Shown: positions 5,475 to 28,498 of the stretch, piece by piece
How the letters are laid out: the number at the start of each line of letters is the position of its first letter
How positions within the stretch are numbered: the first letter of the stretch is position 1
Assembly: GCA_016926955.1 (NCBI GenBank)
Contig: JAFGNN010000055.1
Location: forward strand, 1-30,162
DNA: 30,162 bases
Source: Spirochaetales bacterium
GTDB taxonomy: Bacteria; Spirochaetota; Spirochaetia; Treponematales; UBA12059
Reading direction: 5' to 3'
The notes under the pieces: model-generated
The model's database searches: none
Seen by the model: the letters and a program-made list of their open reading frames with translations, nothing else
What the model was told of the DNA's origin: nothing
Program-made: the position numbers and the translations under genes

Positions 5475-5493
5475 TATTCTTCAAGGAGTTCAT

Positions 5494-6234
5494 ATGAAGC
5501 GTATCATTTTTACGGTGTTGGCGGCGGTGGCGGGGTTCGCGGCGTTCGCGCAAGCGGCGCCGACCGCGGCGGAAATATTGGCGAAGGTGGACGAGAACGA
5601 GAATTTCTCGTCCATCGAGTACGAGGGCCGCATGGAGCTCACGCTCGGCGGCAAGACCCGCGTCAAGACGATGAAGGCCGTGGCCGTCGGCGCGGACAAG
5701 GCGTACATCGAGTTCACCAACCCCGAGGACCGGGGCGTGCGCTACCTCAAGCTCGGCGACGAGCTCTGGATGTACTTCCCGAAGGAGGACGATACGGTCA
5801 AGATCTCCGGCCACCTGCTCCGCGAGGGCATGATGGGCTCGGACGTGTCGTACGAGGAAGCGCTCGAATCCGACAGCCTCGCCGATATTTACGACGCGGT
5901 CGTCAAGGGCCGCGAGGACTACGAGGGCAGGCCCGTCTGGGTGCTCGAACTCACGGCGAAGAAGAGCTCGGCCAGCTACGCGCGGCAGATCCTCCGCGTC
6001 GACGCCGAGCGCTTCGTGACGCTCTCGGCGGACCTGTACGCCAAGAGCGGCAAGTTGCTGAAGGAATCGCGCACCCTCGAAGTCAGGCTCATCGGATTGC
6101 GCTGGTACCCGGTCAAGGTCGAGCTCTCCGACAAGCTCCGCAAGGATTCCCGCACGAGCTTCGAGCTCGTGTCCATCAAGCTGGACGTCGCCGTGGATCC
6201 GAAGCGCTTCACGCTCTCGGAGCTGGGGAAATGA
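5494..6234 (+). CDS. LolA_like (PF17131-type) outer-membrane lipoprotein-sorting protein with a signal peptide (246 aa).
   Basis: It has the signal peptide MKRIIFTVLAAVAGFAAFAQA. The family-typical segment KLGDELWMYFPKEDDTVKISGHLLREGMMGSDVSYEEA matches the conserved LW.YLP...R(I/V)...MGSDF.YED core. RBS AAGGAG is at 5481-5486, and the ATG at 5494 lies inside the longer track ORF. Confidence 0.75.
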   Translation: MKRIIFTVLAAVAGFAAFAQAAPTAAEILAKVDENENFSSIEYEGRMELTLGGKTRVKTMKAVAVGADKAYIEFTNPEDRGVRYLKLGDELWMYFPKEDDTVKISGHLLREGMMGSDVSYEEALESDSLADIYDAVVKGREDYEGRPVWVLELTAKKSSASYARQILRVDAERFVTLSADLYAKSGKLLKESRTLEVRLIGLRWYPVKVELSDKLRKDSRTSFELVSIKLDVAVDPKRFTLSELGK

Positions 6235-7367
6235 AAGGCAACTCGGTCTCCGTCGCGGTTCTCGCGGCGGTCTTCGTCGTCGGCACCTTCCAGCTCGCTG
6301 CGCAATCCGGAGCGCCGGAGTTCGGCGGCGTTTTCTCCCGGAGCGACGCGGCCCTGTACGTTGCCGCCGGGGAAGTCGACTCAGGCGACTTCTCGTGGAC
6401 TGCGGCAAGCGCGCTCGAGCTCGCTCTCCGCGCGGGGGGCGATAGCGCGCGGGCCGAGGCCGCGTTCACGGCGACCGTGCTGAACGGCTCGGCGGCGGAG
6501 GCGATGATCGCGCTCGCGACCTCGATGTCGCTGCCGTCGGGTTCTCCTTTCGCCTCAGGCGGGGCGCTCGTCGTCCCGCTCGCGTCCGATCCGGCCTCCG
6601 TCCTGCTCCTCGAGCTCCGCTCGCTCCAGCTCAGGCTCGACCTGGGCGAGGCGCGGCTCCGCGCGGGCAGGCAGGTGGTCAATTTCGGGCGGGGCCAAGC
6701 CTTCAGCCCGGCGGACGTTTTCGCGCGGCGCGACCTTTCCGGGCTTTCCCCCGCGCGCGCGCCGGTGGACGCGCTCAGGCTTTCGGGCCCCTTCGGGCAG
6801 TTCGGCGGCTGGGACCTCGTGGCCGCGCCGCGCGCCGAAGCGGAGGACGGGACCTACGCGGCGCGCGCCTGGGCCTGGGCCTTCGGGGTGGATGGCGGCC
6901 TCATCGCGGGCCGCGACGGCGGACGCGGAGACTGGCTTGCCGCGGCGGACGTCCAGTTCGACCTCGGCGCCACCTTCCGCGGCGAGGTCCTGCTGCGGTA
7001 TTCAGATTCGGGGGACGCGCGCGTTTCGGCCATGGCCGGCCTCGACTGGTCGCTCGGCGACTTGCTCATGGGGGCCGAGTACTACCGGAACGGCGACGGC
7101 GCGGCGGGCGCGGTGCCGCTTTCGGGGGCTCCGGGCGCGGCTTCGGAACACTACCTTTTCGCGACGCTCGGCTGGCAAGCGGGCGATTTCGCGTCACTCT
7201 CCGCCAGCGCGCTCGCCGAGCTCGACGAAGGGCTCTGGGCGCCAGCCCTGGCCCTCACGGTAGACGCGACGCAGAGCGCCGACCTGGTCGTCGCCCTGCG
7301 GGGCCTCGCCGATTCTGGCGGCGTCGTATCGGCTGCCCTCGCGGCGACGCTCGAGCTTTCGTTCTGA
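6231..7367 (+). CDS. Putative outer-membrane beta-barrel protein (378 aa) with a signal peptide and a C-terminal Phe.
   Basis: The start overlaps the upstream stop (ATGA at 6231-6234). It has the signal MKGNSVSVAVLAAVFVVGTFQLAAQS, Gly/Ala/Ser-rich alternating segments and a terminal ...ATLELSF (an OMP-type C-terminal aromatic). No family was recognised. Confidence 0.55.
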   Translation: MKGNSVSVAVLAAVFVVGTFQLAAQSGAPEFGGVFSRSDAALYVAAGEVDSGDFSWTAASALELALRAGGDSARAEAAFTATVLNGSAAEAMIALATSMSLPSGSPFASGGALVVPLASDPASVLLLELRSLQLRLDLGEARLRAGRQVVNFGRGQAFSPADVFARRDLSGLSPARAPVDALRLSGPFGQFGGWDLVAAPRAEAEDGTYAARAWAWAFGVDGGLIAGRDGGRGDWLAAADVQFDLGATFRGEVLLRYSDSGDARVSAMAGLDWSLGDLLMGAEYYRNGDGAAGAVPLSGAPGAASEHYLFATLGWQAGDFASLSASALAELDEGLWAPALALTVDATQSADLVVALRGLADSGGVVSAALAATLELSF

Positions 7368-7448
7368 TCCGGCGCTGAAGGGCGGATGGCGCCGGCCTTG
7401 CCGCCACCCGCCTCGCGCCGGGCCGGGAAAGCGCGCTCTTCCCACCGC

Positions 7449-7856
7449 TCAGAGTCCGGAGTCCGGGCTCCATAGTCCCGCGACGAACTCGTCCACGGCG
7501 CCTTCGGGGCGGAACTCCGCCGCGAAGACCTCGGCCACCCAGGTCGACGCCTCGGGCAGTATGGAAAGCGCCGCCTCGAATCCGGCGTCGAGGGCACGCC
7601 GCCGCGCGGCGAGCGCGGAAACGCCGAGCGCGCCCGCCGCGACGACGGCGAGGGCGGCGGCGGCGAGCGCTCGGGTGCCGGGCATACGGCGAATCCGTAC
7701 CTCGCGCCGCCGCGACGCGTCCGCGGCCAGTTCGAGCGCCCCCGCTTCGGACGCGCGCGGCGTCCCTTCGCCCGCCAGGTTTCCGACGGCCGCCCGCAGC
7801 GCGGCGCCGAGCGCGGCGTCCCGTCCGTCCCCCAGAGCGATGCGTGTCCGTTTCAT
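7449..7856 (-). CDS. Putative single-pass membrane anti-sigma factor (135 aa), translationally coupled to the ECF sigma gene.
   Basis: The ATG at 7856-7854 overlaps the sigma gene's TGA (ATGA). It has one hydrophobic helix (ALAAAALAVVAAGALGVSALAA) and no zinc-binding anti-sigma motif. The assignment is positional. Confidence 0.45.
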   Translation of the reverse strand: MKRTRIALGDGRDAALGAALRAAVGNLAGEGTPRASEAGALELAADASRRREVRIRRMPGTRALAAAALAVVAAGALGVSALAARRRALDAGFEAALSILPEASTWVAEVFAAEFRPEGAVDEFVAGLWSPDSGL

Positions 7857-8476
7857 GCGTCCCCCCATTCCGCGAGCGCCTGTCCGCGGAGCTTCGCGCG
7901 GGCGCGCGCGAGCTTGCTCTTCACCGTGCCTTCGCGGAGGCCGAACGCGCGCGCCAGGTCGCCGAGCGAGGCGCCTTCCGCGTCGCGCAGGTAGACGAGC
8001 GAGCGCTCAGGTTCCGGCAAGCCCGCCAGCAGCGCCGCGACGCGCTCGCTCGCCTCGCGCCGCTCGAGCGCGGCCGCGGGATCCCCGCCGGAACCGGGCG
8101 GCACCCCGACGCCGGGGGCAGATGCGTCCCCGGCGAAGCGCGCCGCGCGCGCGGCCATGGCGCCGCGCCTGGCGGCCTTCCGGAGCTCGTCGAGGGCCGC
8201 CCGCCGCGCCACCGCGGCCATGAAGGTGGCGACGGCGGAGTCGCCCCGGAAGCGAGCGAGCGCGCCCACGAGGCGGACGCAGGCTTCCTGGACGGCGTCG
8301 TCCACCAGGAGCGGATCCCGGCGGGCGGCCGCCCCGAGCGCGACGAAGGCCGCGCGGCGGAGCAGGCCTTCGTGCCGCCCGACGAGGCACGCGAACGCCC
8401 GGGCGTCGCGCCCCTCCGCCCAGGCGGCCGCGAGCGCGGCGTCGTCGGCTGCCGGATCCGCCGCTTCTTCGCGCAC
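7853..8476 (-). CDS. RNA polymerase ECF-type sigma-70 factor (207 aa).
   Basis: The region-2-like segment is DDAVQEACVRLVGALARFRGDSAVATFMAAVARRAALDELRK and the region-4 HTH is LPEPERSLVYLRDAEGASLGDLARAFGLREGTVKSKLARARAKLR. Its GTG start overlaps the upstream gene's stop (TAGTG). Confidence 0.85.
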   Translation of the reverse strand: MREEAADPAADDAALAAAWAEGRDARAFACLVGRHEGLLRRAAFVALGAAARRDPLLVDDAVQEACVRLVGALARFRGDSAVATFMAAVARRAALDELRKAARRGAMAARAARFAGDASAPGVGVPPGSGGDPAAALERREASERVAALLAGLPEPERSLVYLRDAEGASLGDLARAFGLREGTVKSKLARARAKLRGQALAEWGDA

Positions 8477-9021
8477 TACTGGATGAGCCTCAGCACACCG
8501 GCGAGCACCCTGAGCTTTTCCGCATCGCCCGCGCGCTCGGCGAGCTCGCGTAGGTCGCCCGCCTTCGAGATGGCCGCCATGCCCCGCGCCAGGCGGTTCA
8601 GGACGCCCCAGCGCTCGGTCCCGAGCAGGGCGCGGATGGCCAGGCCCCGCTCGATCTGTACCATGCGGATGCGGTACTCGGCCTCGAGGCTGGCGCGCAC
8701 GGTCTTCTCGACCGCGGCCCGGTCCGGCTCGTCCTCGAGAAGGAGCCGCGCCAGGCGGGCCTGCAGTTCCCGGATTTCCGCGCGCGCGCGCTCGAGCTCC
8801 CTGGCGCCCTTGCCCGAAAGCTCCGCGATACGCGCGGCCTCCTCGTCGGTGAGCGCGAGCAGGCGGAAATCGCGGCGCGCCTCGGCGATGCCGTAGCCCG
8901 GGTCCCGGTACTGCGCCGGCACGGCGGCGGGTCCCGGCCCCTGGGCCGCGAGCAGGGCCGGCGCCGCGAGCAACACGGCGGCGACCATCATTCCCTTCAT
9001 ATTCTTTCCGTTCACATTCAT
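8476..9021 (-). CDS. Periplasmic Spy/CpxP-like (LTXXQ-type) helical protein, first gene of the ECF operon (~181 aa).
   Basis: It has the signal peptide MNVNGKNMKGMMVAAVLLAAPALLAAQ. Helical repeats LTDEEAARIAELSGKGARELERARAEIRELQARL resemble LTXXQ periplasmic chaperone/sensor motifs. GGAGG sits 9 nt upstream of the ATG at 9021; the alternative ATG at 9030 has no spacer. Confidence 0.45.
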   Translation of the reverse strand: MNVNGKNMKGMMVAAVLLAAPALLAAQGPGPAAVPAQYRDPGYGIAEARRDFRLLALTDEEAARIAELSGKGARELERARAEIRELQARLARLLLEDEPDRAAVEKTVRASLEAEYRIRMVQIERGLAIRALLGTERWGVLNRLARGMAAISKAGDLRELAERAGDAEKLRVLAGVLRLIQ

Positions 9022-9139
9022 GCCGTTCATCCTCCGCCCATTGGTCGCCGCGGACGCGCCCCGGGTTCCCTCAAAAAGCGCATATCCCCCACGCATTGTA
9101 GCGCGACGGCGGCGCGTCTGGAAATTCACGGGCCACCTG

Positions 9140-9148
9140 TGCCATAAT
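9140..9148 (+). promoter_or_regulatory. Candidate extended -10 element (TGcCATAAT) for ileS. It is followed by a GC hairpin (9155-9178) in the ~45-nt leader.
   Basis: This was read directly and no clear -35 was found. No T-box consensus is present. Confidence 0.3.
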
Positions 9149-9200
9149 CGCCCGAAGCGCGCCCCGCCCGGGGCGCTGTCCCGCATCCGGAGGAAGCGCC

Positions 9201-12200
9201 GTGTTCAAGCCCGTGGATCCCAAAGTGAACTTCCCGCAGATGGAAGAGGCCCTCGTCGAATTCTGGGAGCGCGAGCGCATCTTCAAGCGGAGCATCGAGC
9301 AGCGCGAGGGCAAGGACGAGTTCGTCTTCTACGACGGCCCTCCCTTCGCCACGGGCCTGCCCCACTTCGGCCACTTCGTCCCCGGCACCATCAAGGACAT
9401 CGTCCCGCGCTACAAGGCCATGAAGGGCTACAAGGTCGAACGCCGCTTCGGCTGGGACTGCCACGGCCTCCCGGTCGAGTACGAGATGGAGAAGGAGCTC
9501 GGCATCTCCGGCAAGCGCCAGATCGAGGACTTCGGCGTCGCGAAGTTCAACGAGTCCTGCCGCTCCATCGTACTCCGCTACACCAAGGAGTGGCGGCGCA
9601 TCATGACCCGCGCCGGCCGCTGGGTCGATTTCGACAACGACTACAAGACCATGGACCCCGACTACATGGAGTCCATCTGGTGGGTGGTCAAGGCGCTGTG
9701 GGACAAGGGCCTCGTGTACGAGGGCCACTACATCCTGCCCTACTGCCCGCGCTGCTCGACCGTGCTCTCGAACCACGAGCTCCAGCTCGGCGGCTACCGC
9801 GACGTCCACGACCCCGCCATCACCGTGCGCTTCAAGGTGAAGGCCGCCCCCCCGAAATTCCCGCTCGCGGACCTGGCCGACGGGCACACCTACGTGCTGG
9901 CCTGGACCACCACGCCCTGGACCCTGCCCTCCAATCTCGGCCTGACCGTCGGACCCGACATCGACTACGTCCTGGTCAAGGACGGGACCGAGCGCTACCT
10001 CCTCGCGGAGTCGCGGCTCGGCGCGTACTACAAGGAAACCGACACGCTCGACTTCGCCTGGAAGGGCAAGGGCTCCGAGCTTTCGATGCTCGAGTACGAA
10101 CCCCTCTTCGACTTCTTCGCCGACGCGCGCGAACAGGGCGCCTTCCGCGTCCGGACCGGCGACTTCGTCACCACCGAGGACGGCACCGGCGTCGTGCACA
10201 CCGCGCCCGGCTTCGGCGAGGACGACTACCGCGCGCTCAAGGACACGGGCATCCCCGTCATCGCGCCGCTCGACGGCGAGTGCCAGTTCACCGACGAGGT
10301 GCCCGACTGGAAGGGCTTGTTCGTCAAGGACGCCGACAAGCCGATCATGGAAAAGCTCAAGGTCGAGGGCAAGCTCGTCAGGCGCGAGCAGATCCTCCAC
10401 GCCTACCCGCACTGCTGGCGCTGCGGCAGCCCCCTCATCTACCGCGCCATCTCGAGCTGGTTCGTCAAGATCGACCCCGTGAAACCCATGATGCTGGACG
10501 CGAACTCGCGCGTGCGCTGGACGCCCGAGCACATCCGCGACGGCCGCTTCGGCAAGTGGCTCGAGAACGCGCGCGACTGGGCCATCAGCCGCAACCGCTA
10601 CTGGGGCAATCCGCTGCCCATCTGGAAGTGCGACTCCTGCGCCGAGACCGTGTGCGTCGGCAGCCGCGACGAGCTCGAGAAGCGCTCCGGCACCCGCCCC
10701 GACGACCTCCACAAGCACTTCGTCGACGAGATCACCTGGAAATGCTCCTGCGGCGGGACCATGAAGCGCATTCCCGAGGTGCTGGACTGCTGGTTCGAGT
10801 CCGGGTCCATGCCCTACGCCCAGGTGCACTACCCCTTCGAGAACAAGAAGCACTTCGAGGAGCACTTCCCCTCCGACTTCATCTGCGAAGGCCTCGACCA
10901 GACCCGCGGCTGGTTCTACACCCTGACCATCCTGGCGGCGGCCCTCTTCGACCGGCCGGCCTTCAAGGCCTGCGTGGTCAACGGCCTCGTGCTGGCCTCC
11001 GACGGCAAGAAGATGTCGAAGAGCCTCCGCAACTACACCGACCCCATGGTCGTCATGAACGAGTTCGGCGCCGACGCGCTCAGGCTCTTCCTCATGCGCT
11101 CCGCCGTGACGCGGGCCGACGACCTCTGCTACTCCGACGAGGGCGTGCGCGAGGTGCTCAAGGGCATCATCCTGCCCGTCTGGAACGCGTACAGCTTCTT
11201 CGTCACCTACGCCAACATCGACAGGGCCGAGCCCGGCGAGGCGCCGACCGACGCCGCGAACCCGCTCGACCGCTGGATACTCTCCACCTGCGAAGCCATG
11301 GTCCAGGCGACCGGCGCGGCGCTCGAAGCCTACGACATGCAGGCCGCCATCGAGCCCATCGTCGACTACATCGACGCGCTCAACAACTGGTACATCCGCC
11401 GCTCGCGGCGCCGTTTCTGGCGTTCGGAGAACGACGGCGACAAGGCCGAGGCCTACGCCACCCTCTACCGCGTGCTCCGCCGCCTGGCCGAGACCGCGGC
11501 GCCCATCATGCCCTTCGTCAGCGAGGAGATCTGGCGCAACCTGCGCCGCCCCGACGAGGCCGAATCCGTCCACCTCCGCGACTACCCCGAGTACGACGCG
11601 CGCTACCGCGACGAGGCGCTCGAAGCCAAGATGGCCATCGCGCGCAAGGCGGTCGCCATGGGCCGCGCGCTCCGCGCCCAGTACGAGCTGAAGGCGCGCC
11701 AACCACTCGCGCGCGCGATCCTGGTCACCCGGGATGCCAAGGAGCGCGCGGTGCTCCGCGAGATGGAAGAGCTGCTCCGCGACGAGCTCAACGTCAAGGA
11801 GCTGGCGTTCCGCGAGAACGAGGAGGACCTCGTCTCGTACTCCGCGAAGGCCAACTTCCGCACGCTCGGCAAGGAGCTCGGCAAGGACATGAAGGAGGCG
11901 GCCGCCCTCATCGAGAAGCTCGACCACCGCGCCGCCGCCACCCTGGTCGAAGGCGGTCGGCTCGAACTCACGGTGGCCGGCCGTCCCGTCGAGCTCGACC
12001 TTTCCAAGGTCGAGATCCGGCGGCAGGAAAAGGAAGGGCTCCACGTCCTCAACGAGGGCACGCTGACCGTCGGCCTCGACGTCGAGATAACGCAGGAGCT
12101 GCTCGACGAGGGCTACGCGCGCGACCTGGTGCGCGGCCTCCAGAACCTGCGCAAGGAAGCCGGCCTCGAGGTTTCAGACCGCGTTCGTATCGGCCTCTTC

Positions 12201-12353
12201 GGCCCCGCCGCGCTCAAGGCCGCCTGGGAGCGCTTCGCCGACTACGTCGCCGGCGAGACCCTGGCCGTCGCCGTGGAATGGAAGGAAGCAAGCGGCATGA
12301 CGGAGATCGAAGCCGGCGAAATCGCCTGGCTCGCCGCCGTCGAAAAGGCCTGA
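9201..12353 (+). CDS. ileS: Isoleucine--tRNA ligase, type 2 (eukaryote-like bacterial form), 1050 aa.
   Basis: It has the HIGH motif PHFGHFVPG, the KMSKS motif KKMSKSLRNY, an editing domain and a type-2 C-terminal extension. The GTG start at 9201 has GGAGG at 9189-9193. Confidence 0.95.
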   Translation: MFKPVDPKVNFPQMEEALVEFWERERIFKRSIEQREGKDEFVFYDGPPFATGLPHFGHFVPGTIKDIVPRYKAMKGYKVERRFGWDCHGLPVEYEMEKELGISGKRQIEDFGVAKFNESCRSIVLRYTKEWRRIMTRAGRWVDFDNDYKTMDPDYMESIWWVVKALWDKGLVYEGHYILPYCPRCSTVLSNHELQLGGYRDVHDPAITVRFKVKAAPPKFPLADLADGHTYVLAWTTTPWTLPSNLGLTVGPDIDYVLVKDGTERYLLAESRLGAYYKETDTLDFAWKGKGSELSMLEYEPLFDFFADAREQGAFRVRTGDFVTTEDGTGVVHTAPGFGEDDYRALKDTGIPVIAPLDGECQFTDEVPDWKGLFVKDADKPIMEKLKVEGKLVRREQILHAYPHCWRCGSPLIYRAISSWFVKIDPVKPMMLDANSRVRWTPEHIRDGRFGKWLENARDWAISRNRYWGNPLPIWKCDSCAETVCVGSRDELEKRSGTRPDDLHKHFVDEITWKCSCGGTMKRIPEVLDCWFESGSMPYAQVHYPFENKKHFEEHFPSDFICEGLDQTRGWFYTLTILAAALFDRPAFKACVVNGLVLASDGKKMSKSLRNYTDPMVVMNEFGADALRLFLMRSAVTRADDLCYSDEGVREVLKGIILPVWNAYSFFVTYANIDRAEPGEAPTDAANPLDRWILSTCEAMVQATGAALEAYDMQAAIEPIVDYIDALNNWYIRRSRRRFWRSENDGDKAEAYATLYRVLRRLAETAAPIMPFVSEEIWRNLRRPDEAESVHLRDYPEYDARYRDEALEAKMAIARKAVAMGRALRAQYELKARQPLARAILVTRDAKERAVLREMEELLRDELNVKELAFRENEEDLVSYSAKANFRTLGKELGKDMKEAAALIEKLDHRAAATLVEGGRLELTVAGRPVELDLSKVEIRRQEKEGLHVLNEGTLTVGLDVEITQELLDEGYARDLVRGLQNLRKEAGLEVSDRVRIGLFGPAALKAAWERFADYVAGETLAVAVEWKEASGMTEIEAGEIAWLAAVEKA

Positions 12354-12364
12354 GAAGCAGGAAT

Positions 12365-12475
12365 CCAACGCCGAGACGCCGAGAACACCGAGACAAGAAT
12401 GAAAAAGGGGAAGGGTCATGACGACCCTTCCTTTTTTCTTCGTCCCGATCTCGGCGTCTCGGCGTCTCGGCGTTT
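12365..12475. repeat. Extended ~110-nt palindrome. A 28-bp inverted repeat (AACGCCGAGACGCCGAGA... / ...TCTCGGCGTCTCGGCGTT, with the CCGAGAC unit iterated) flanks the ileS terminator hairpin.
   Basis: The left arm is 12365-12393 and the right arm 12448-12475. The first 18 nt of the arms are perfectly complementary. Confidence 0.55.
12403..12440 (+). terminator. Rho-independent terminator of ileS. An A-tract precedes a GGGGAAGGGTC/GACCCTTCC stem with a TTTTTTCTT tail, so it is potentially bidirectional.
   Basis: It has a perfect 9-10 bp GC-rich stem, a 5-nt loop and a U-tract. Confidence 0.8.
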
Positions 12476-12706: not shown

Positions 12707-13090
12707 TCAGCGGCGCCTGGCCTCCATGGCGGCGGCAATTTTCTCTATGGTCTCCGCGGAGAGGTAGTGCTCGATGCGGCAGGCGTCGCGCTCGGCGGTC
12801 TCGGGGCTGACGCCCAGGAAGTCGCGGAGGAAGCGGGTGAGCAGCTCGTGGCGCCTGCGGATCTCGGCGGCGTGGTCGAGGCCCGCGGGGGTAAGGGCGA
12901 CGTCGCCATAGGGCTCATGCACCACGAGGCCGCGGCGCTCGAGCTCATGCAGGGCCGTGTGCACCGAGGGCTTGGACACCGAGAGAACTCGCGCGATGTC
13001 GGTCACCCGCCCCTTCGCGCCCCGCTCCCGGATCGAGTCTATGGCCTCCAGGTACATCTCGAGGCTTTCGGATAGCCGCTCGTCCGCCAC
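12707..13090 (-). CDS. DtxR/MntR-family metal-dependent transcriptional regulator (127 aa; no C-terminal SH3-like domain).
   Basis: LSESLEMYLEAIDSIRERGAKGRVTDIARVLSVSKPSVHTALHELERRGLVVHEPYGDVALTPAGLDHAAEIRRRHELLTRFL is a DtxR-type wHTH plus metal-binding/dimerisation helix. The GTG start at 13090 has GGGAGG 7 nt upstream. Only the 3' 384 nt of the 504-aa track ORF is real. Confidence 0.8.
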   Translation of the reverse strand: MADERLSESLEMYLEAIDSIRERGAKGRVTDIARVLSVSKPSVHTALHELERRGLVVHEPYGDVALTPAGLDHAAEIRRRHELLTRFLRDFLGVSPETAERDACRIEHYLSAETIEKIAAAMEARRR

Positions 13091-13229
13091 GTCGCAAACC
13101 TCCCGCGCGTCCTGCTCGACGCCCACTCTACACCGCGGGCTCCGGCGCGTGAAGCGGTCGCGCGGCCGCCTGAAGTGCTCGCCATGCCCTTGATGCGCGC
13201 GAAGAACGATTTGACAGGAAATATCATAT

Positions 13230-13315: not shown

Positions 13316-15001
13316 ATGTCTACGGTCATAGCACTGATCGCGTTGGGCATCTACGTGGTGTTCTACTTCACCTACGGCAAGAACATCCAGGTCAAGCTGC
13401 TCAAGAGCCGCGAGGCGCCCAAGGCGCCGAGCGAGCGGCTCTCCGACGGCGTCGACTACGTGCCGACTTCGAAGTACGTGCTCTTCGGTCACCACTTCGC
13501 CTCGATCGCCGGCGCGGGCCCCATCACGGGACCGGCCATCGCGGTCGCCTGGGGCTGGCTGCCGGGCCTCCTCTGGATCTGGTTCGGAAACATCTTCATC
13601 GGCGCCATCCACGACTACCTGTCGCTGGCCGCCTCGATCCGCTACGACGGGCGCTCGGTGCAGTTCGTGGCGCAGGACCTGATCGGCAAGAAGGCCGGAA
13701 AGACCTTCAGCTGGTTCATCCTCTTCCTCTGCGTCCTGGTCGTGGCCGCCTTCGGCGACATCGTCGCCGGGCAGTTCGCCACCGACGGCCGCGTCTTCTT
13801 CTCCTTCGTCTTCTTCTGCGTCGCGGCCGTCATCTCCGGCTACTTCATGTACAAGACGAAGCTCGGCCTCGGCTGGGGCTCGCTCCTCGGCCTCGCCCTC
13901 GTCATCCTGGCCTTCTGGGGCGGCGACATGCTGCCGCTCAAGATGTCGAAGGACATCTACTTCGCCATCATCTTCGTCTACATCATGCTCGCGTCCACCC
14001 TGCCGGTTAACCTGCTCCTGCAGCCGCGCGACTACCTCTCGTCCTTCTTCCTCTACTTCGGCCTGCTCGCGGGCGGCATCGCGGCCCTGATCAGCATGGC
14101 CCCGCTCGAGTCCGTGCCGATCTACACGAGCTTCAGCGCCAAGGTCATAGCCGGCGTGCCCTCGCCCTTCTGGCCCACCGTACCGCTCATCATCGCGTGC
14201 GGCGCGCTCTCGGGCTTCCACTCCCTGGTGGCCTCGGGCACGAGCTCGAAGCAGATCAAGACCGAAAGCGACGCGCTTTTCGTCGGCTACGGCGGCATGC
14301 TCGTCGAGGGTTTCCTCTCGACCCTCGTCATCATCTCGATCGCGGGATTCGGCATCGCGGCCTTCGGCTCCCCCGACAAGGTCATGGGCGCCGCGGCGCT
14401 CAACCGCTTCGTCCAGTCCTTCGCGGCCATGGTCAGCACGCAGATTCCCTTCCTCAGCATGAACTTCATGACGCTGTTCGCCGCGGTCTGGGTTTCCACC
14501 TTCGCGCTGACCACCCTCGACACCACGAACCGCCTCGGCCGCTACGTGGTCCAGGAGATGGCCCTGCCGCTCAAGGACTCCAAGCCCGGCCTCTACAAGG
14601 CATTCAGCAACAAGTGGATCGCCTCGTTCGTCATCGCCTTCCTCGGCATCGGCCTGGCCTGGACCGGCAACTACACGGTGCTCTGGCCCGCGTTCTCTGG
14701 CGCCAACCAGCTCCTGGCCTCCATCGTCATGCTCACCGTGGCGGCCTGGGTGACCAAGAAGCTCAACCCGAAGTACTCGGCCATGGTCATGATCCCCGCG
14801 GTGCTGCTCTGGATCACGGTGACCGCCGCCCTCATCTGGTACGAGGCCGCGGTCATCCCCACCTTCTTCCGCGACATGGCGCTCACCAAGAACGTGATCA
14901 CCGGAACGGTTGTCGGCGCCATCACCGCCTTCATGCTGATCCTGAACTTCATCATGATCGCGAGCTTCCTCAAGAACTACAAAACCAAGGTCGCGGCCTG
15001 A
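13316..15001 (+). CDS. cstA: CstA-family (carbon starvation protein A-like) peptide/pyruvate transporter, 561 aa.
   Basis: The N-terminal region VDYVPTSKYVLFGHHFASIAGAGPITGPAIAVAWGWLPGLLWIWFGNIFIGAIHDY matches the CstA signature (PT.K.VLFGHHFA.IAGAGP). The protein is polytopic, and RBS AAGGAGG is at 13303-13309. Confidence 0.85.
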   Translation: MSTVIALIALGIYVVFYFTYGKNIQVKLLKSREAPKAPSERLSDGVDYVPTSKYVLFGHHFASIAGAGPITGPAIAVAWGWLPGLLWIWFGNIFIGAIHDYLSLAASIRYDGRSVQFVAQDLIGKKAGKTFSWFILFLCVLVVAAFGDIVAGQFATDGRVFFSFVFFCVAAVISGYFMYKTKLGLGWGSLLGLALVILAFWGGDMLPLKMSKDIYFAIIFVYIMLASTLPVNLLLQPRDYLSSFFLYFGLLAGGIAALISMAPLESVPIYTSFSAKVIAGVPSPFWPTVPLIIACGALSGFHSLVASGTSSKQIKTESDALFVGYGGMLVEGFLSTLVIISIAGFGIAAFGSPDKVMGAAALNRFVQSFAAMVSTQIPFLSMNFMTLFAAVWVSTFALTTLDTTNRLGRYVVQEMALPLKDSKPGLYKAFSNKWIASFVIAFLGIGLAWTGNYTVLWPAFSGANQLLASIVMLTVAAWVTKKLNPKYSAMVMIPAVLLWITVTAALIWYEAAVIPTFFRDMALTKNVITGTVVGAITAFMLILNFIMIASFLKNYKTKVAA

Positions 15002-15054
15002 GCCACGGCACGCCGCGACCGCCTTCCCGGCCGGTCGCGGCGACTCATGAAGGG

Positions 15055-15084
15055 GGCTTCCCGCGGGGAAGCCCCTTTCTCATC
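15055..15084 (+). terminator. Probable intrinsic terminator after cstA: GGGGCTTCCC-gcg-GGGAAGCCCC followed by TTTCTCAT.
   Basis: It has a 10-bp perfect stem, though the U-tract is short and interrupted. A second hairpin (CGCGACCG/CGGTCGCG) sits at 15013-15038. Confidence 0.5.
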
Positions 15085-15104: not shown

Positions 15105-15389
15105 TTGAAACCAGGTGGATTTTTCCGTTTCCTCGGCAGGTTCTGGTCGGTCGTGGCGCAGGTCCACAGGGAGAAGGCGACGGGCATGCTGGAGTTCGAG
15201 CTCCGCGAGCTCGAGAATGCCTTCGCGCTGCTCGTGCTCGGCGGCTTCGCGGGACTGCCCTCGCCACCCTCCCCGATCGCGATGGAGCTGCTTCCCTACC
15301 TCGAGCGGGAGCTGACCGTGATGATGTCCCGCAGCGATCTCGCGCAGGACCCCCTGGGCGTCCTCGCCGGCATGCTGGAAATCGACTGA
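15105..15389 (+). CDS. Small hypothetical protein (94 aa from TTG 15105, or 67 aa from ATG 15186), first gene of the ArsA-like cluster.
   Basis: There is strong GC3 codon bias throughout. GGAGAAGG lies ~11 nt before the ATG at 15186. No family was recognised, and the stop is 6 nt before the next gene. Confidence 0.5.
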   Translation: MKPGGFFRFLGRFWSVVAQVHREKATGMLEFELRELENAFALLVLGGFAGLPSPPSPIAMELLPYLERELTVMMSRSDLAQDPLGVLAGMLEID

Positions 15390-15395
15390 GCGCTT

Positions 15396-16328
15396 ATGGA
15401 AGGAAACAACGTGCGGAACATAGCATTCTTCCTCGGCAAGGGCGGGGTCGGCAAGACGACGCTCTCGGCGGCCTTCTCGCTCGAACTCGCGAAGCGCGGC
15501 AAACGCGTCCTCGTCGTCTCGCTCGATCCGGCCCACAACCTCGGCGACGCGCTCGGCATCCGGCTTGTCGACAGACCCGAGCCGGTCCTCGAACGGCTCT
15601 TCGCCATGGAGATCGACCTGACCGCCTGGGTCGAGCGCTACCTCGAGGAAAGCCGCTCGGAGCTCAAAGCCCTCTATGCCTACAACTCGAGCTTCAATCT
15701 CGATTCCTTCTTCGACATCATGCGCTACTCCCCGGGCACCGAGGAGTACGCGATGCTCTGGGCCATCGAAAACGTGTACTGCGAGCTCTCGGCCGGCTAC
15801 GACGTCGTGGTGTTCGACACGCCGCCCACGGCGCTCTCGCTCCGCTTCCTGGCCCTGCCAACCATCTCGGGTCTCTGGGTGAATGAACTCACCAAGCTGC
15901 GCGAGCACATCCTCAAGAAAAGGCAGGTGATATCCCGGCTCAACCCCGAATCGCCGGTGGCCGCGAGCTGCGTCGACAAGGACGACGACCGCGTCCACGG
16001 CAAGCTCTCGCTCATCTCGAAGCGGCTCGGCGTCCTGCACCGGCTATTTTCGGAGGAAAGCTTCATCTCCGTCATCGTCAACCCGGACGTCCTGTCCGTG
16101 TCGGAAGCCATGCGCATCAAGGACGAGCTCGACCGCATCGGCATCGGCCTCCACGCCGCCTGCCTCAACAAGCGCGGAGCCTCCACGGCCGCGTGGCGGA
16201 TCGACGACGGCCTCAAGGCGCTTCCCCTTTTCGAACTCGATTACAAGCCCGAGGGCATACGCTCTCCGGACGATCTTTCGCGCGTCGACGTTTCCGCCCT
16301 CGCGGCGGAGTTCCTCGGCGTCGAATAA
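15396..16328 (+). CDS. ArsA/GET3-family P-loop ATPase, single-domain (310 aa).
   Basis: It has the deviant Walker A FFLGKGGVGKTTLSAAF, the ArsA/Get3 signature SLDPAHNLGDALG (DPAHSL-like) and the DTPPTA switch motif. An alternative GTG start at 15411 has GGAAGGA upstream. Confidence 0.8.
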   Translation: MEGNNVRNIAFFLGKGGVGKTTLSAAFSLELAKRGKRVLVVSLDPAHNLGDALGIRLVDRPEPVLERLFAMEIDLTAWVERYLEESRSELKALYAYNSSFNLDSFFDIMRYSPGTEEYAMLWAIENVYCELSAGYDVVVFDTPPTALSLRFLALPTISGLWVNELTKLREHILKKRQVISRLNPESPVAASCVDKDDDRVHGKLSLISKRLGVLHRLFSEESFISVIVNPDVLSVSEAMRIKDELDRIGIGLHAACLNKRGASTAAWRIDDGLKALPLFELDYKPEGIRSPDDLSRVDVSALAAEFLGVE

Positions 16329-16331
16329 GGA

Positions 16332-16979
16332 ATGGCACCCATGAACCCCCTTTTCGTAGGCGGCATCGCCGCGCTCGGCATCGCCGCCACAGTGCAGTAT
16401 TTCCTCGGCGTCAAGAAGAACCGATGGATATCCTCCCGCATCTCATCCGCCGCCGAGAAGACCTTCGCTCCGAAGGACACGAACTACGTCAACATAGGCG
16501 GGGCCATCGGCCACAACTTCACCTACAAGCTCAAGGATCCGTGGACCGAAGCGAAAGGAGCGATAACTCTAAGCCCGCGGCAGTCCATGCTCTACCTGCC
16601 CTTCTCGCGCCTCATCGGCTTCGGCGACCGCTTCTTCGCCAATCTGTACACCAAGCGGAAGATGCTCGGCGAGATGCACCTGGTCGAGGCGGGCCATCTG
16701 AAACGCGCGAAAATCGACGGCATCGACGCCATGCAGCGTCGGAGCGTCGAGAGGGGCGGCAAGCGCTTTGTCATCCTCTGGAAGGGGAAGGATGACACGA
16801 AGGTCCTCGACGATGCCCTGGCCGAGCTGCCGGATCCGGCCGCCCTGCGGCACTTCTGCTGCTTCCCGGACAACCGCACGGTGTTCTTCTACCTGGTGCC
16901 GCGCAGGGGCGACCTGGACGAAACCCTGCCGGTGCTCGAGCGCCAGGCCCGCGCCTGCATCCGAGAAAAGGAGTCCTGA
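16332..16979 (+). CDS. Hypothetical protein with an N-terminal membrane anchor (215 aa).
   Basis: The N-terminal helix is MAPMNPLFVGGIAALGIAATVQYFLGV. It shows strong GC3 bias and a CCFPD motif. It starts 4 nt after the ArsA-like stop, with an alternative ATG at 16341. Confidence 0.55.
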   Translation: MAPMNPLFVGGIAALGIAATVQYFLGVKKNRWISSRISSAAEKTFAPKDTNYVNIGGAIGHNFTYKLKDPWTEAKGAITLSPRQSMLYLPFSRLIGFGDRFFANLYTKRKMLGEMHLVEAGHLKRAKIDGIDAMQRRSVERGGKRFVILWKGKDDTKVLDDALAELPDPAALRHFCCFPDNRTVFFYLVPRRGDLDETLPVLERQARACIREKES

Positions 16980-16980
16980 G

Positions 16981-17253
16981 ATGGCCGACGAAGTCCGCGC
17001 CAGTATCGACGCGGCCCTGGCCTCGGTCATCGAGCCGCAGACCCTGGTCTCGGTGCTCGACCTGGGCTTCGTGGCGGGGGTGAGCTACTCGGAGACCGGG
17101 CGCCGCGTCATTCTCAGGCTCGCGGTGGAGGACCGGCGCTTCGCGTGCCCGGCCTGCAGCCTGGTCGACAGCCTTGCGGTCGAGGACATGGCGCGCCGCG
17201 TCCGCGAGGCGGTCGGCGCCGCCCTGCCCGGCTGGACCGTCGAGACGACCTGA
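16981..17253 (+). CDS. DUF59/MIP18-like (Fe-S cluster assembly-associated) small protein, 90 aa.
   Basis: VRASIDAALASVIEPQTLVSVLDLGFVAGVSYSETGRRVILRLAV resembles the DUF59 fold signature (V.DPE.G...V.LG.V). The ATG at 16981 is 2 nt after the upstream stop. Confidence 0.55.
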   Translation: MADEVRASIDAALASVIEPQTLVSVLDLGFVAGVSYSETGRRVILRLAVEDRRFACPACSLVDSLAVEDMARRVREAVGAALPGWTVETT

Positions 17254-25002: not shown

Positions 25003-26781
25003 TCACGCTCCCTTGCGCAACGCGCGGTCGATGGCCAGGGCGGCCCGGTGGCCGTCCGCGATGGCGCTGATGGCGTCCTTCTTTTCGTTGACGAGGTCGC
25101 CGCCGGCCCACACCTTCGGGTCGCCCGTGCGGCCCGTCGCGTCGACCACCGGCTTGTAGCGCTTGATCTCGAGGCCGTCCGCGGCGTCGGCGCCGATGAA
25201 CGAAAGGTCCGGTCCCTGGCCGATGGCCGCCACGATGGTGTCGTAGCGGACCTCGCGCACGGTCTCGCCCATGAGTTCCGGGAGCGGGCGCTTGCCCGGC
25301 CCCTGGTCGACCATGCGGGCCTGGCCCCACGACACGAGCGCCGAGCCGTCCGGACCGAGCTTGACGCCCGTCGGGATGGCCTGCACGACGATGGCAACGC
25401 CCTCGGCCTTCGACTCCACGATCTCCTCGGGGTCGGCGGGCATGTCGACCTCGCGGCGCCGGTAGAGGATGTCCACCTCGGCGCCGAGGCGCCGCGCGGT
25501 GCGGGCGCAGTCCATGGCGACGTTGCCGCCGCCGACCACCGCCACCTTCTTCCCCAGTTTCGGATCCTCGCCGCGGGTGACCTGGGCCAGCACCTCGACG
25601 CCGTCGCGAACGCAGGGCAGGTCGTCGCCGCTCACGTCTAGCTTGTACGCCGCGGGCAGGCCCGTGGAGACGTAGACCGCGTCATGCTCGCGCTTCAGCT
25701 TCGCGTAGTCGAAATCCTTGCCCACGGCGACGGAAGTCTCGACCTTGACGCCGAGGCTTTCGATGTAGCCTATGTCCTTGTCGAGCGCCTCGTAGGGCAG
25801 GCGGTACTCGGGGATGCCGTAGCAGAGCATGCCCCCGGCCTTGGGCGCGGCTTCGAGCACGCTCACCTCGTGGCCGGCCATGGCCAGGTAGTAGGCCGCG
25901 GCCAGGCCGCCGGGGCCCGCGCCGACGACGGCCACCTTCTTTCCTGAAGGCGCGTCCTTGCGCGGCAGTTCCTTGGCGTAATCGGAGAGCTCCACCTGGT
26001 CGGCGATATAGCGCTTGAGCCAACGGATGGCCAGCGGATCGCCCCGGACGCCGATGGAGCAGGCTTCCTCGCAGACGTGGGTGCAGACGCGGCCGCAGGC
26101 CTCGGGGAAGGGGTTGGTCTCGTAGAGGAGGCGCAATCCCTCGTCGATGTTCCCCTCGCGCACGGCCCGGATGTAGCCGGGAATGTCCATGTGCGCGGGG
26201 CAGGAGGCGACGCAGAGGCCGCATTCGACGCAGCGGTCGGCTTCCTTCTCCGCGAGCTCGCGCGAGTAGCCCTTCACGAGCTCGCGGAAGCTCGCGACGC
26301 CCTCGGCGTGCGGGAGCTCGGGCATCTCCACCCGCTCCCTGTCGAGGATGGAGTAGCCCTCGGCGCGCTTGTAGCCGAGCTCGGCCGAGTCCCAGGGTTT
26401 TTTTTCGACGCCGGGCACGAAGCGGAAGTCCTCGGGGTCGGACGAGATCCAGACGTACTCGTTGCTCATGGTGAGCGAGCCCGAGGGGCAGATGTCGACG
26501 CAGAGCGCGCACCAGCAGCAGCGGCCGTAGTCGATGCGGGGCCGGAGCCCCGAGTCGCCCGCGGACGGCGAGCGGCCCGCGACCTCCACGAGGTCGATGG
26601 CGCCGTTCTGGCAGATGGCCTCGCAGCTGCCGCAGCCGACGCAAGTCTCCGCGTCGTTCTTGTGGAAGCCGCGGTAGCGCGGGGCGCCGGGGCGCTCGTC
26701 GATGGGCTTCTTCACGGTGAAGGGCTTTTCGAACGCGCGCTTCCAGACCGCGAACGGGGCGATGAAATCCTTGACGTCCAT
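25003..26781 (-). CDS. Fusion protein (592 aa). An N-terminal NuoI/EchF-like 2x[4Fe-4S] ferredoxin domain is joined to a complete GltD/NfnB/SudA-type FAD/NAD(P)H oxidoreductase.
   Basis: The N-terminus has CVGCGSCEAICQ and CCWCALCVDICPSG. The C-terminal part has the GltD N-terminal cluster motifs CVECGLCVASCPAHMDIPGYI and CGRVCTHVCEEAC, an FAD site GKKVAVVGAGPGGLAAAYYLAMAGHEV and a NAD(P)H site GKKVAVVGGGNVAMDCARTARRLGAEV. Confidence 0.8.
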   Translation of the reverse strand: MDVKDFIAPFAVWKRAFEKPFTVKKPIDERPGAPRYRGFHKNDAETCVGCGSCEAICQNGAIDLVEVAGRSPSAGDSGLRPRIDYGRCCWCALCVDICPSGSLTMSNEYVWISSDPEDFRFVPGVEKKPWDSAELGYKRAEGYSILDRERVEMPELPHAEGVASFRELVKGYSRELAEKEADRCVECGLCVASCPAHMDIPGYIRAVREGNIDEGLRLLYETNPFPEACGRVCTHVCEEACSIGVRGDPLAIRWLKRYIADQVELSDYAKELPRKDAPSGKKVAVVGAGPGGLAAAYYLAMAGHEVSVLEAAPKAGGMLCYGIPEYRLPYEALDKDIGYIESLGVKVETSVAVGKDFDYAKLKREHDAVYVSTGLPAAYKLDVSGDDLPCVRDGVEVLAQVTRGEDPKLGKKVAVVGGGNVAMDCARTARRLGAEVDILYRRREVDMPADPEEIVESKAEGVAIVVQAIPTGVKLGPDGSALVSWGQARMVDQGPGKRPLPELMGETVREVRYDTIVAAIGQGPDLSFIGADAADGLEIKRYKPVVDATGRTGDPKVWAGGDLVNEKKDAISAIADGHRAALAIDRALRKGA

Positions 26782-26787
26782 ATCGCG

Positions 26788-27957
26788 CTACCTCTCGATC
26801 TCGGGCGGATAGGTGTGGAGGCTGACCATGAGGCCGGCCAGGTCGGCGAGGTTCTGGCCCTTGGCCAGGGTCTCCATGACCGACACCGCGTGCGTGTAGC
26901 TCGGGCCGCGCACGACGACGCGGCGCGGCTTGTCGGAGCCGTCGGACACCACGTAGAAGCCGTACTCGCCGCGCGTGCACTCGCTCTTCACGTAGGTCTC
27001 GCCCGCGGGGATCTTCCAGTGGAGCGGGTTCGGCAGGGCCGCCTTGAACTCGCCGCCTTTCGGCATGCGCGCGAGCATCTGGCGGATCAGGTCGATGGCC
27101 TGGTACATCTCGCCGAGGCGGACCAGGGCGCGGTCGTAGGCGTCGGAGCCCTCGGCCGTGACGTAGTCGAAATCGAGCTTGTCGTACACGAGGTAGGGCT
27201 GGTCCTTGCGGATGTCGCGGCGGAAGCCGGCGGCGCGGGCGTTCGGGCCCGTGATGCCGAAGCGGTCGATCCAGTCCTTCGGGATGACGCCGAGCCCCTT
27301 CGCGCGCAGCTTGAACACCGCGTTGTGGAACATGACGAGCTCGATGTCGTCGAGGTTCTTCTCGATGGTGTCCATGACCTCGAGGGCATGGGCCGCCCAA
27401 CCCTCGGGCAGGTCGGAGCGCACGCCGCCGGGGATGATGTACATGTGGTAGATGCGTCCGCCCGAGAGCTCCTCGAAGAGGTCGAGGACGTAGTCGCGCA
27501 TGGTGGCCGACCACTGGATGATGGTGCCGTGCCCGAAGGCGCCGGCCTGGCCGCCGATCCACATGAGGTAGCTGGCGAGCCGGATCATCTCGAGCGTCAG
27601 GTTGCGGAGCCACTTGGCCTTCTCCGGCACCTCGACGCCCGCGAGCTCCTCGATGGCCGCGGCGTAGCAGTACTCGTTGAAGTCCGGCTCGGGCACCGCG
27701 ATGCGGCAGACGAGGGGGAAGTTCTGCATCCAGAGCCGGCGCTCCATGAGCTTCTCGAAGCCGCGGTGCAGGTAGCCCACGTGGGTCTTGCAGTCGTAGA
27801 CGGTGTCGCCCGCGATGGCCAGCTCGAGCGACATGTTGCCCGTGATGCCGGGGTGCTGGGGCCCCTGCCACATCTTGAGGAACTTGCCGGAGGCGAAGTC
27901 CACCGGCTCCTTCGGGTCGTAGGGGGGCGGGAAGAATCCCTTGACGCCTTCGAACAT
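26788..27957 (-). CDS. NuoD/EchE-like large subunit (389 aa) lacking all [NiFe] cysteine ligands, i.e. Ehr/complex-I-like and not a hydrogenase.
   Basis: WQGPQHPGITGNMSLEL...DTVYDCKTHVGYLHRGFEKLME aligns with the NuoD GPQHPAAHGVLRL...IGYHHRGAEK. The N-terminal RxCGxC and C-terminal DPCxxC are absent, and the C-terminus ...SLHTYPPEIER has no Cys. The ATG at 27957 overlaps the nuoC-like stop (ATGA). Confidence 0.85.
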   Translation of the reverse strand: MFEGVKGFFPPPYDPKEPVDFASGKFLKMWQGPQHPGITGNMSLELAIAGDTVYDCKTHVGYLHRGFEKLMERRLWMQNFPLVCRIAVPEPDFNEYCYAAAIEELAGVEVPEKAKWLRNLTLEMIRLASYLMWIGGQAGAFGHGTIIQWSATMRDYVLDLFEELSGGRIYHMYIIPGGVRSDLPEGWAAHALEVMDTIEKNLDDIELVMFHNAVFKLRAKGLGVIPKDWIDRFGITGPNARAAGFRRDIRKDQPYLVYDKLDFDYVTAEGSDAYDRALVRLGEMYQAIDLIRQMLARMPKGGEFKAALPNPLHWKIPAGETYVKSECTRGEYGFYVVSDGSDKPRRVVVRGPSYTHAVSVMETLAKGQNLADLAGLMVSLHTYPPEIER

Positions 27958-28487: not shown

Positions 28488-28498
28488 CGCTCCCGCTC

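Follow-up and report, generated by a model that had tools for sequence, protein, structure and literature searches.

The arsA-like gene cluster of a Spirochaetales contig is part of a CstA permease operon

The group of genes considered here lies at positions 15105 to 17253 of contig JAFGNN010000055.1 (assembly GCA_016926955.1, an uncultivated Spirochaetales bacterium); the whole analysed stretch of 30,162 nucleotides (nt) is referred to below as the window. The four genes of the group encode a small protein (cstX), an ATPase of the ArsA/Get3 class (arsA-like), a protein with an N-terminal membrane anchor (cstY) and a DUF59-like protein. They are the downstream four-fifths of a five-gene operon, cstA-cstX-arsA-like-cstY-DUF59-like. 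Its organising partner is CstA, a permease whose gene stands directly upstream on the same strand, 103 nt before cstX, outside the four-gene cluster delimited in the original prediction, which was made from the sequence alone and had overlooked it. The operon may well encode a CstA permease together with a dedicated ATPase module, which would be docked through CstX and CstY and would drive or gate uptake. This reading is based on the near-obligate linkage of the module to one permease subfamily, the intact ATPase motifs, the tight packing of the genes and the fold relatives of CstY, as TtfA and CCDC47 are membrane-anchored partners of polytopic membrane proteins. The precedent of ArsA and ArsB, and the same proposal made from coevolution by Castillo & Saier (2010), point in the same direction. 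The components of the operon are listed below, with protein lengths in amino acids (aa) and TM standing for transmembrane.

13316 to 15001, plus strand: cstA, polytopic CstA-family permease of 561 aa (Pfam CstA, 3.9e-128)
15011 to 15080, plus strand: cstA-cstX spacer, two strong GC-rich hairpins found by RNA folding
15105 to 15389, plus strand: cstX (g1), 94 aa, acidic helical hairpin, Pfam DUF7990
15396 to 16328, plus strand: arsA-like gene (g2), 310 aa, single-domain ArsA/Get3-class deviant-Walker-A ATPase
16332 to 16979, plus strand: cstY (g3), 215 aa, N-terminal TM anchor and alpha/beta domain with a predicted CCDC47/TtfA fold
16981 to 17253, plus strand: DUF59-like gene (g4), 90 aa, with CPAC (CxxC), facultative fifth component

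Composition and conservation of the cstA operon

All four open reading frames (ORFs) of the noted cluster are real and lie on the plus strand at these coordinates. The gaps between cstX, the arsA-like gene, cstY and the DUF59-like gene are 6, 3 and 1 nt, which fits co-translation, and the co-directional, tightly linked arrangement read earlier from the sequence is confirmed. The true start of the DUF59-like gene is the ATG at 16981, and the listed ORF start at 16768 is an out-of-gene extension. An alternative start of the arsA-like gene, the GTG at 15411, is the one called by NCBI (P0169) and gives a product of 305 aa. The cstX gene begins with TTG, preceded by the Shine-Dalgarno sequence GGGGGAGG, and its product is identical to the NCBI-called 94-aa protein P0049. 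The spacer between cstA and cstX is strongly structured: the folding energy of the segment 15000-15110 is -65.7 kcal/mol (z = -4.16), and none of 200 shuffled sequences was equally stable. The second hairpin is followed by UUUCUC, without a clean T-run, and a simple terminator scan, in which no clear T-run was seen, did not call the spacer hairpins. They could be a partial or leaky terminator, or a processing or stability element, that tunes the ratio of the permease to its accessory proteins. In the window as a whole, no Rfam family was found at gathering thresholds, the sigma-70 promoter scan gave nothing, and terminator matches were at the level expected by chance.

The arrangement is conserved well beyond the window. 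Five distinct spirochaete loci (L001, L002/L003, L004/L005, L006 and L007), with g3 or g1 homologues 46-66% identical to those of the window, encode in the same order CstA of ~560 aa, a DUF7990 protein of ~93 aa, an ArsA-like protein of ~305-310 aa, a protein of ~210 aa and one of ~90 aa, and the outer flanks differ in every one of them. The CstX of L006 is the protein that NCBI names for Marispirochaeta aestuarii. The species genomes of GTDB were scanned with the CstY motif LLPRQS[LW]LY, which selects a subset of CstY proteins, and 65 loci were obtained; hidden Markov models (HMMs) of the five proteins were then run on the six-frame ORFs of all loci. The bacterial loci belong to Spirochaetota, Syntrophales, Desulfobacteraceae, Thermodesulfobacteriota, Caldisericota, Thermodesulfovibrio and Hydrothermota, and the archaeal ones to Thermococcus, Archaeoglobus, Thermoplasmata, Thermoprotei and Pyrodictiaceae. 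Among the 49 loci with at least 3.3 kb of upstream sequence, 44 have CstA, CstX and the ArsA-like ATPase encoded on the same strand directly before CstY, and two of the five exceptions are ORF-extension artefacts. To avoid circularity, a second search was started from CstX, using a hand-written degenerate DNA pattern for ELENxF...GxxxGxPxPP in metagenomes. The 120 metagenome stretches retrieved with this pattern all encode a true CstX. CstA lies upstream on the same strand in 64 of the 67 loci with enough flank, the ATPase gene comes next after cstX in at least 53 of 57 loci, and CstY then follows in 51 of the 57. Moreover, the pairwise divergences of CstA, CstX, the ATPase and CstY are correlated over 91 non-redundant loci (Spearman 0.67-0.77), as would be expected if the genes travel as one unit, although common descent by itself also contributes to such values. 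The conservation of the gene neighbourhood, with the order kept in many genomes, is therefore well established.

Several variants of the locus were also observed. Extra copies of CstY occur in many operons, at about 3200-3900 in L034-L037, L039, L042, L048, L049, L051 and L052, and also in L011, L012, L097, L101, L113, L139, L145 and L162. They take the form either of a second paralogue just upstream of cstA, often with a DUF59-like gene before it, or of a tandem after the ATPase gene (three copies in L101). In two spirochaete metagenome-assembled genomes (MAGs), a second ArsA-like ATPase gene, besides the copy inside the operon, is divergent upstream of cstA (L038, 2771-3751, minus strand; L046, 2614-3543, minus strand). 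In L015 (Syntrophales) CstX and the ATPase are missing and CstY comes immediately after CstA, and in L070 (Thermoprotei) and L066 the cstA gene is on the opposite strand. A tblastn search of PLSDB plasmids with CstY and CstX gave no match.

An operon of this kind has been described before. Castillo & Saier (2010; PMC2963123, Int J Microbiol 2010:187373) found by comparative genomics that cstA is clustered, in 26 instances among bacteria and archaea, with a gene for a single-domain ArsA homologue of ~300-330 aa. They found the ~90-aa CstX in 24 of the 26 cases and a ~210-aa CstY with a single transmembrane segment (TMS) in five archaea, including Thermococcus kodakarensis and Hyperthermus butylicus. 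These authors showed that CstA, CstX and the ATPase coevolve, suggested that CstA is energised by the ATPase and that CstX couples the two, and noted that ars and cst genes never share operons (PMC2963123). The operon of the window matches theirs in composition and sizes and likewise contains neither arsR nor arsB. The earlier view that the cluster is not a described operon type can therefore not be kept, since the order cstA-cstX-arsA-cstY was already on record (PMC2963123), although the cluster is, as had been said, experimentally uncharacterised. The presumed identity of g3 with CstY rests on its position, size, TM helix and taxon, rather than on alignment to the entries of those authors. 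In Thermococcus and Pyrodictiaceae, for which CstY had been described, g3 homologues stand at its place in the operon.

The present results differ from the earlier description in several respects. CstY was then found in five archaea only, whereas here it accompanies most CstX-bearing loci, many of them in Bacteria; it is widespread in Bacteria, and is the rule rather than a five-archaeon exception. CstX was described as a single-TMS protein, whereas here it scores as non-TM by hydropathy. Neither DUF59 nor spirochaetes are mentioned in PMC2963123, and the spirochaete variant with a terminal DUF59-like gene, and the DUF59-like protein as a recurrent fifth component, are new. The CCDC47/TtfA fold predicted for CstY is also new. 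The literature search found no paper that links Get3 with CstA, or ArsA with the carbon-starvation protein in Thermococcus.

Properties of the operon proteins

CstA-family permeases are widespread carbon- and nitrogen-scavenging transporters, and the characterised relatives of CstA carry pyruvate or peptides. At least 11 TM-like windows were detected by hydropathy in the CstA of the window, and no solved relative was found by sequence search. Its score against the NCBIfam model of the pyruvate/proton symporter CstA, 205.8, is far below the cut-off of 1188, which makes the protein a member of the CstA family and not the equivalog of the Escherichia coli protein. In the E. coli pairs cstA-ybdD and btsT-yjiX, a small, soluble DUF466 protein is encoded behind a CstA-family permease. 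In the operon studied here, the small partner is instead a DUF7990 protein, and the ATPase and CstY are present in addition.

The arsA-like product contains one Pfam ArsA_ATPase domain (4.4e-45) and passes the model TIGR00345 (GET3_arsA_TRC40) with 151.3 bits against a cut-off of 135. However, it fails the ArsA equivalog TIGR04291 (84.5 against 650 bits) and the MrpORP model (19.8 against 450), and remains below the cut-off of the NUBPL/ParA model PF10609 (23.8 against 27.1 bits). The earlier assignment to a single-domain ArsA/Get3-class ATPase, neither a pump-type ArsA nor an Mrp/NBP35 protein, is thereby upheld. The closest solved relatives are ArsA proteins and the archaeal Get3 homologues 3zq6 and 3ug6 (1e-28 to 1e-33), and the alignment with the archaeal Get3 homologues extends over ~250 residues. 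The motifs on which that assignment had been based (GKGGVGKTT, DPAHNL, DTPPT) are present, and GKGGVGKTT, SLDPAHNL, PGxxE and DTPPT are near-invariant across 61 ATPases of the cluster. All nucleotide-handling motifs have been kept, which indicates that ATP turnover matters, and the ATPase is predicted from its sequence to be catalytically intact. None of the three cysteines of the window protein is conserved across the 61 ATPases, and there is no CXXC; it is therefore an ATPase without the metalloid site of ArsA, the CXXC zinc site of Get3 or the cluster ligands of the Mrp type.

In the homologue search with the ATPase, the best 120 matches were listed, and the annotated ones among them all carry spirochaete (Spirochaet*) names; the three homologous-protein searches likewise returned mainly spirochaete relatives. 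Relatives of the ATPase are labelled automatically as 'arsenite-transporting ATPase' or 'arsenite/tail-anchored protein-transporting ATPase', and the former annotation is probably wrong for many members. Two contigs with CstY have spirochaetes as closest relatives but are labelled Clostridia in one case and Zetaproteobacteria in the other. These taxon labels and the arsenite names look like binning and annotation errors.

The comparison with characterised systems defines the position of this ATPase more closely. ArsA turns the secondary carrier ArsB into an ATP-driven pump (PMC2963123), and in ArsAB an ATPase of the same family is likewise coupled genetically to a permease of the secondary-carrier type. 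However, the ArsA of that pump is a two-domain protein of ~580 aa with metalloid-binding cysteines and DTAPTGH switches, whereas the protein studied here has a single domain, DTPPT and no conserved cysteine. Its partner is CstA and not ArsB or Acr3, and two or three extra small subunits are present. With Get3/TRC40 it shares the TIGR00345 model and the single-domain architecture, and a homodimer would be expected. The zinc motif CXXC of Get3 is nevertheless absent, and no receptor of the Get1/Get2 type is evident, although no search for receptors was made. Moreover, the arsA-like gene is locked to one permease operon, which would be unusual for a general targeting factor. The likeness to Mrp/NBP35/ApbC, in which DUF59 is fused to the ATPase, consists in a SIMIBI-class P-loop ATPase standing next to a protein of the DUF59 fold. 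Those ATPases, however, have cluster-ligating cysteines, whereas the present one has none and belongs to the ArsA/Get3 branch, and its DUF59 partner is optional and often free of cysteines.

CstY has a single N-terminal TM-like segment at residues 7-25, as had been noted for the 215-aa protein, and the alpha/beta domain is predicted to be cytoplasmic because KKNR follows directly after this segment. In the AlphaFold2 (AF2) model, with a predicted local distance difference test (pLDDT) score of 93.7 and a predicted template modelling (pTM) score of 0.87, the TM segment forms the beginning of a long N-terminal helix, after which comes the alpha/beta domain. When this model was used in a Foldseek search, three CCDC47 chains ranked first (E 1e-9, 2e-8 and 3e-5; probability 1.0; TMq 0.68-0.72 for the top two), and TtfA came fourth. 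The gathering threshold of the Pfam family CCDC47 (PF07946, 27.7 bits) was reached by no CstY, and the CstY of the window gave no match to it. Sub-threshold matches to PF07946 were nevertheless obtained for 47 of 110 CstY relatives (best 6.2e-5), against five for the next family, and six of ten archaeal CstY proteins match it in a common register (residues ~8-112 of the protein, positions ~5-122 of the profile). The family profile of CstY found nothing meaningful among PDB sequences (best E 0.62); the link to CCDC47 and TtfA is therefore based on the fold and on the sub-threshold Pfam matches. Searched against 1.84 billion representative proteins, the same profile retrieved 229 clusters at 50% identity, nearly all of 200-230 aa and matching from end to end.

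The multipass translocon has CCDC47 as one of its membrane-anchored components (PMC13261788), and TtfA is described as an accessory protein in complex with the transporter MmpL3 (PMC6593404). Like CCDC47 of the PAT complex (PF07946, formerly DUF1682), CstY consists of a TM anchor and a cytoplasmic globular domain of the same predicted fold. However, CCDC47 also has a luminal acidic domain and C-terminal ribosome-binding helices, both lacking in CstY, whose model ends ~10 residues past the last helix of the globular domain; the modelled CCDC47 chain has 342 residues, compared with the 215 aa of CstY. The Asterix partner of CCDC47 has no counterpart among the genes of the operon, in which CstX is a two-helix soluble hairpin, and CstY, unlike CCDC47, is encoded together with a transporter and an ATPase. 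TtfA (PDB 6t84) resembles CstY in predicted fold, without detectable sequence similarity; its partner is MmpL3, of the resistance-nodulation-division (RND) type, and not CstA, and no ATPase partner of TtfA is known. No paper linking CCDC47 with TtfA, or dealing with prokaryotic relatives of DUF1682/PF07946, was found in the literature search. The 215-aa protein had been suggested as a possible client of the ATPase. Since CstY is conserved as a partner in the operon, diverges in step with the other proteins and has a predicted fold of the CCDC47/TtfA type, an accessory or scaffold subunit fits better than a substrate. The CCFPD motif pointed out in this protein is present, as HFCCFPD, but it is conserved only among close spirochaete relatives and was for that reason rejected as a functional metal site.

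CstX was correctly characterised at the outset as small and acidic (94 aa, isoelectric point 4.9), and hydropathy reveals no hydrophobic window of TM grade. P0049 carries a precomputed assignment to PF25952 (DUF7990), and CstX matches the NCBIfam model NF041419 (cory-CC-star) weakly, with 21.9 bits against 80. Its AF2 model (pLDDT 81) is a two-helix hairpin in which helices 3-49 and 56-91 are joined by a PSPP loop, and the tip of the hairpin corresponds to the invariant GxPSPP. The hydrophobic tip of the hairpin is AFALLVLGGFAGLPSPP, and ~30 polar residues come after it. The motifs ELENxF and GxPSPP are kept from Spirochaetota to Thermococcus and Thermoprotei. A structure search with the CstX model was uninformative. 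CstX was also considered as a tail-anchored client and rejected because it has no segment of TM grade.

The DUF59-like protein is a recurrent but optional fifth component of the operon. Its Pfam FeS_assembly_P score is borderline (23.6 against 23.5 bits), but a profile built from the window protein and its cluster-linked relatives (15 relatives) matches the DUF59 structures 3lno (1.2e-6), 1uwd (1.8e-5), 5ird (2.8e-4) and 2cu6 (6.7e-4), so that its recognition as a standalone DUF59 protein is supported. The gene is present in 18 of the 65 genome loci and 26 of the 57 metagenome loci (~30-45%), and its position varies. It follows cstY in all spirochaete loci of the window type, stands between the ATPase gene and cstY in Caldisericota, Thermococcus and one Thermodesulfobacteriota MAG, and in other spirochaetes lies upstream of cstA, often beside the second CstY paralogue. 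The CPAC of the window protein aligns with the Cys-Pro position of DUF59. This CxxC is kept in spirochaetes, Archaeoglobus and Thermodesulfobacteriota and is absent from the cluster members of Caldisericota and Thermococcus.

Surroundings of the operon in the window

A metal-dependent repressor of the DtxR/MntR family (Fe_dep_repr_C 3e-18, Fe_dep_repress 3e-14) is encoded at 12707-13099 on the minus strand, divergent from cstA; in the related loci examined, no repressor of this type stands beside the operon. Downstream, the Fe-S-rich respiratory block to which attention had been drawn does exist: NuoB/C/D-like and Fe-S flavoprotein genes occupy 25003-29191 on the minus strand, ~8 kb from the operon. 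The wider segment 24548-29191 (minus strand) encodes a rubrerythrin-domain protein, a 4Fe-4S/FAD pyridine-nucleotide oxidoreductase and NuoD-, NuoC- and NuoB-like subunits, and PtsI, Der/EngA and an M18 aminopeptidase are encoded between the operon and this block. The supposed link to these respiratory genes is not supported, as the flanks differ in every relative examined, and a functional connection with the Nuo-like block was rejected for its lack of synteny. Genes of the ars type (arsB, acr3, arsC, arsR, arsD) were found neither in the scanned ORFs of the window nor in those related loci that are annotated, and for the window this agrees with the original prediction. Several long ORFs have no Pfam match (5460-7367, plus; 7561-8896, plus; 9020-12421, plus, or 9126-12044, minus), one of them of 1133 aa, and the GC content reaches 75-77% over positions 7000-9000, compared with ~65-70% elsewhere in the window.

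Possible roles of the ATPase module

If the ATPase module serves CstA directly, its action could be pictured as follows. CstA would import a small carbon or nitrogen substrate, and a homodimeric ArsA/Get3-class ATPase would be held at its cytoplasmic face by two adaptors, CstY and CstX. The N-terminal helix of CstY would anchor it in the membrane, with the CCDC47/TtfA-type domain facing the cytoplasm, and CstX would act as the highly conserved acidic helical hairpin adaptor. The ATP-dependent closing and opening of the ATPase dimer may then be passed through the adaptors to CstA, and this motion would either power transport, as ArsA does for ArsB, or gate it. The DUF59-like protein would be an optional extra subunit, whose CxxC may contribute thiol or metal sensitivity in some lineages.

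Several observations weigh against this reading. The characterised proteins CstA and BtsT are proton symporters that operate with no ATPase, as is also reflected in the name of the NCBIfam model, so the basic function of the family needs none. Shared ancestry alone can yield correlated divergence. Moreover, six CstX-ArsA-like loci (L135, L166, L179, L185, L186 and L188) have no detectable CstY within 2.7-9.6 kb downstream; CstY is therefore not absolutely required, and a CstY-less version of the module exists. No later paper using CstX and CstY in this sense was found in the literature search. Finally, Get3 and CCDC47, the two relatives known from eukaryotes, serve the biogenesis of membrane proteins rather than transport, which is at the same time an argument for a different explanation. 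According to it, the Get3-like ATPase, CstY and CstX form a biogenesis machine that targets, inserts, folds or quality-controls CstA (or CstX itself), as a prokaryotic counterpart of Get3/PAT chaperoning, with no role in transport. We regard it as possible, though doubtful. The ATPase passes the GET3/TRC40/ArsA model, its closest single-domain solved relatives include the archaeal Get3 homologues, and the hydrophobic tip of CstX could fill a groove of the Get3 type. However, general factors are not normally tied to one client, and here the relation to a single permease subfamily is near one-to-one. CstY is also without the ribosome-contacting C-terminal helices of CCDC47, the ATPase lacks the zinc-binding CXXC of Get3 and has no conserved cysteine, and CstX, with its polar residues past the tip and no TM-grade segment, is not tail-anchored. 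In addition, TtfA, the other relative in fold, is an accessory factor of a transporter rather than an insertase. A more far-reaching proposal, which at present seems somewhat unlikely, sees in CstY a genuine homologue of CCDC47 in prokaryotes, both in Bacteria and in Thermococci, Archaeoglobi, Thermoplasmata and Thermoprotei, and in CstY, the Get3-class ATPase and CstX together an ATP-dependent assembler or chaperone of a polytopic membrane protein. If this were true, the functions of the PAT complex and Get3 in eukaryotic membrane-protein biogenesis would have a prokaryotic forerunner in the CstY machine, and mycobacterial TtfA would belong with CstY to one ancient family of membrane-anchored proteins that partner multipass proteins.

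The module might also act purely as a sensor of the ATP state, which switches a self-sufficient, proton-coupled CstA or links it to signalling without supplying energy. The functioning of CstA-family permeases alone elsewhere is in line with this, as are the many deviant-Walker-A ATPases, such as MinD and ParA, that are nucleotide-dependent switches, the facultative DUF59 subunit with its redox capability, and the cstA-cstX hairpins, which allow unequal stoichiometry. We nevertheless hold it to be unlikely, because the closest precedent in the same ATPase family, ArsA-ArsB, is one of energisation; at the level of sequence the two are not separated, and a mere switch overlaps with a module that drives or gates uptake. 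The original prediction had considered membrane-associated targeting or metallocluster delivery; the membrane-associated role is very likely, whereas the delivery of metalloclusters is not borne out. In the latter case, the ATPase and the DUF59 protein would act like Mrp/NBP35 in membrane-associated Fe-S or metallocluster delivery, possibly for the nearby respiratory complex. The DUF59-family protein with a CxxC at the Cys-Pro position, the Fe-S genes ~8 kb away and the DtxR-type metal-dependent repressor divergent upstream of cstA speak for this. However, the DUF59-like gene is present in only a part of the loci and has lost its cysteines in Caldisericota and Thermococcus, the ATPase has no conserved cysteine and is below the NUBPL/ParA threshold, and the HFCC of CstY is not conserved beyond close spirochaete relatives. 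None of the related loci examined has the Nuo-like genes or the DtxR repressor in its flanks, and the invariant partner is a permease and not an Fe-S enzyme. Metallocluster delivery is thus largely refuted already by the phyletic pattern, and we consider it highly improbable. Still less can be said for resistance to arsenite or antimonite, with the ATPase as an ArsA serving an arsenic carrier, whose probability is practically negligible: only the family name and the automatic labels of relatives speak for it, while the protein is single-domain, of 310 aa, far below the ArsA equivalog cut-off and without conserved cysteines. The search for ars genes in the window and the annotated related loci found none, and carbon-starvation and arsenic genes never share operons (PMC2963123).

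The wider meaning of the operon is that an ATPase module accompanies a whole subfamily of CstA permeases, found in anaerobic bacteria and in hyperthermophilic archaea. Should the ATPase prove to energise or gate CstA, it would follow ArsAB as the second example of an ArsA/Get3-class ATPase acting on a secondary carrier, here with two or three dedicated adaptors. An adaptor of the predicted CCDC47/TtfA fold would tie this operon to the multipass translocon of eukaryotes and to the MmpL3 machinery of mycobacteria, and no paper linking the three was found in the literature search. That a CCDC47-fold partner stands beside a Get3-class ATPase in Bacteria and Archaea alike would come as a surprise to specialists in membrane biogenesis. 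As genetics is available for Thermococcus kodakarensis and Marispirochaeta is cultivated, the operon offers a tractable prokaryotic context for the CCDC47/TtfA fold.

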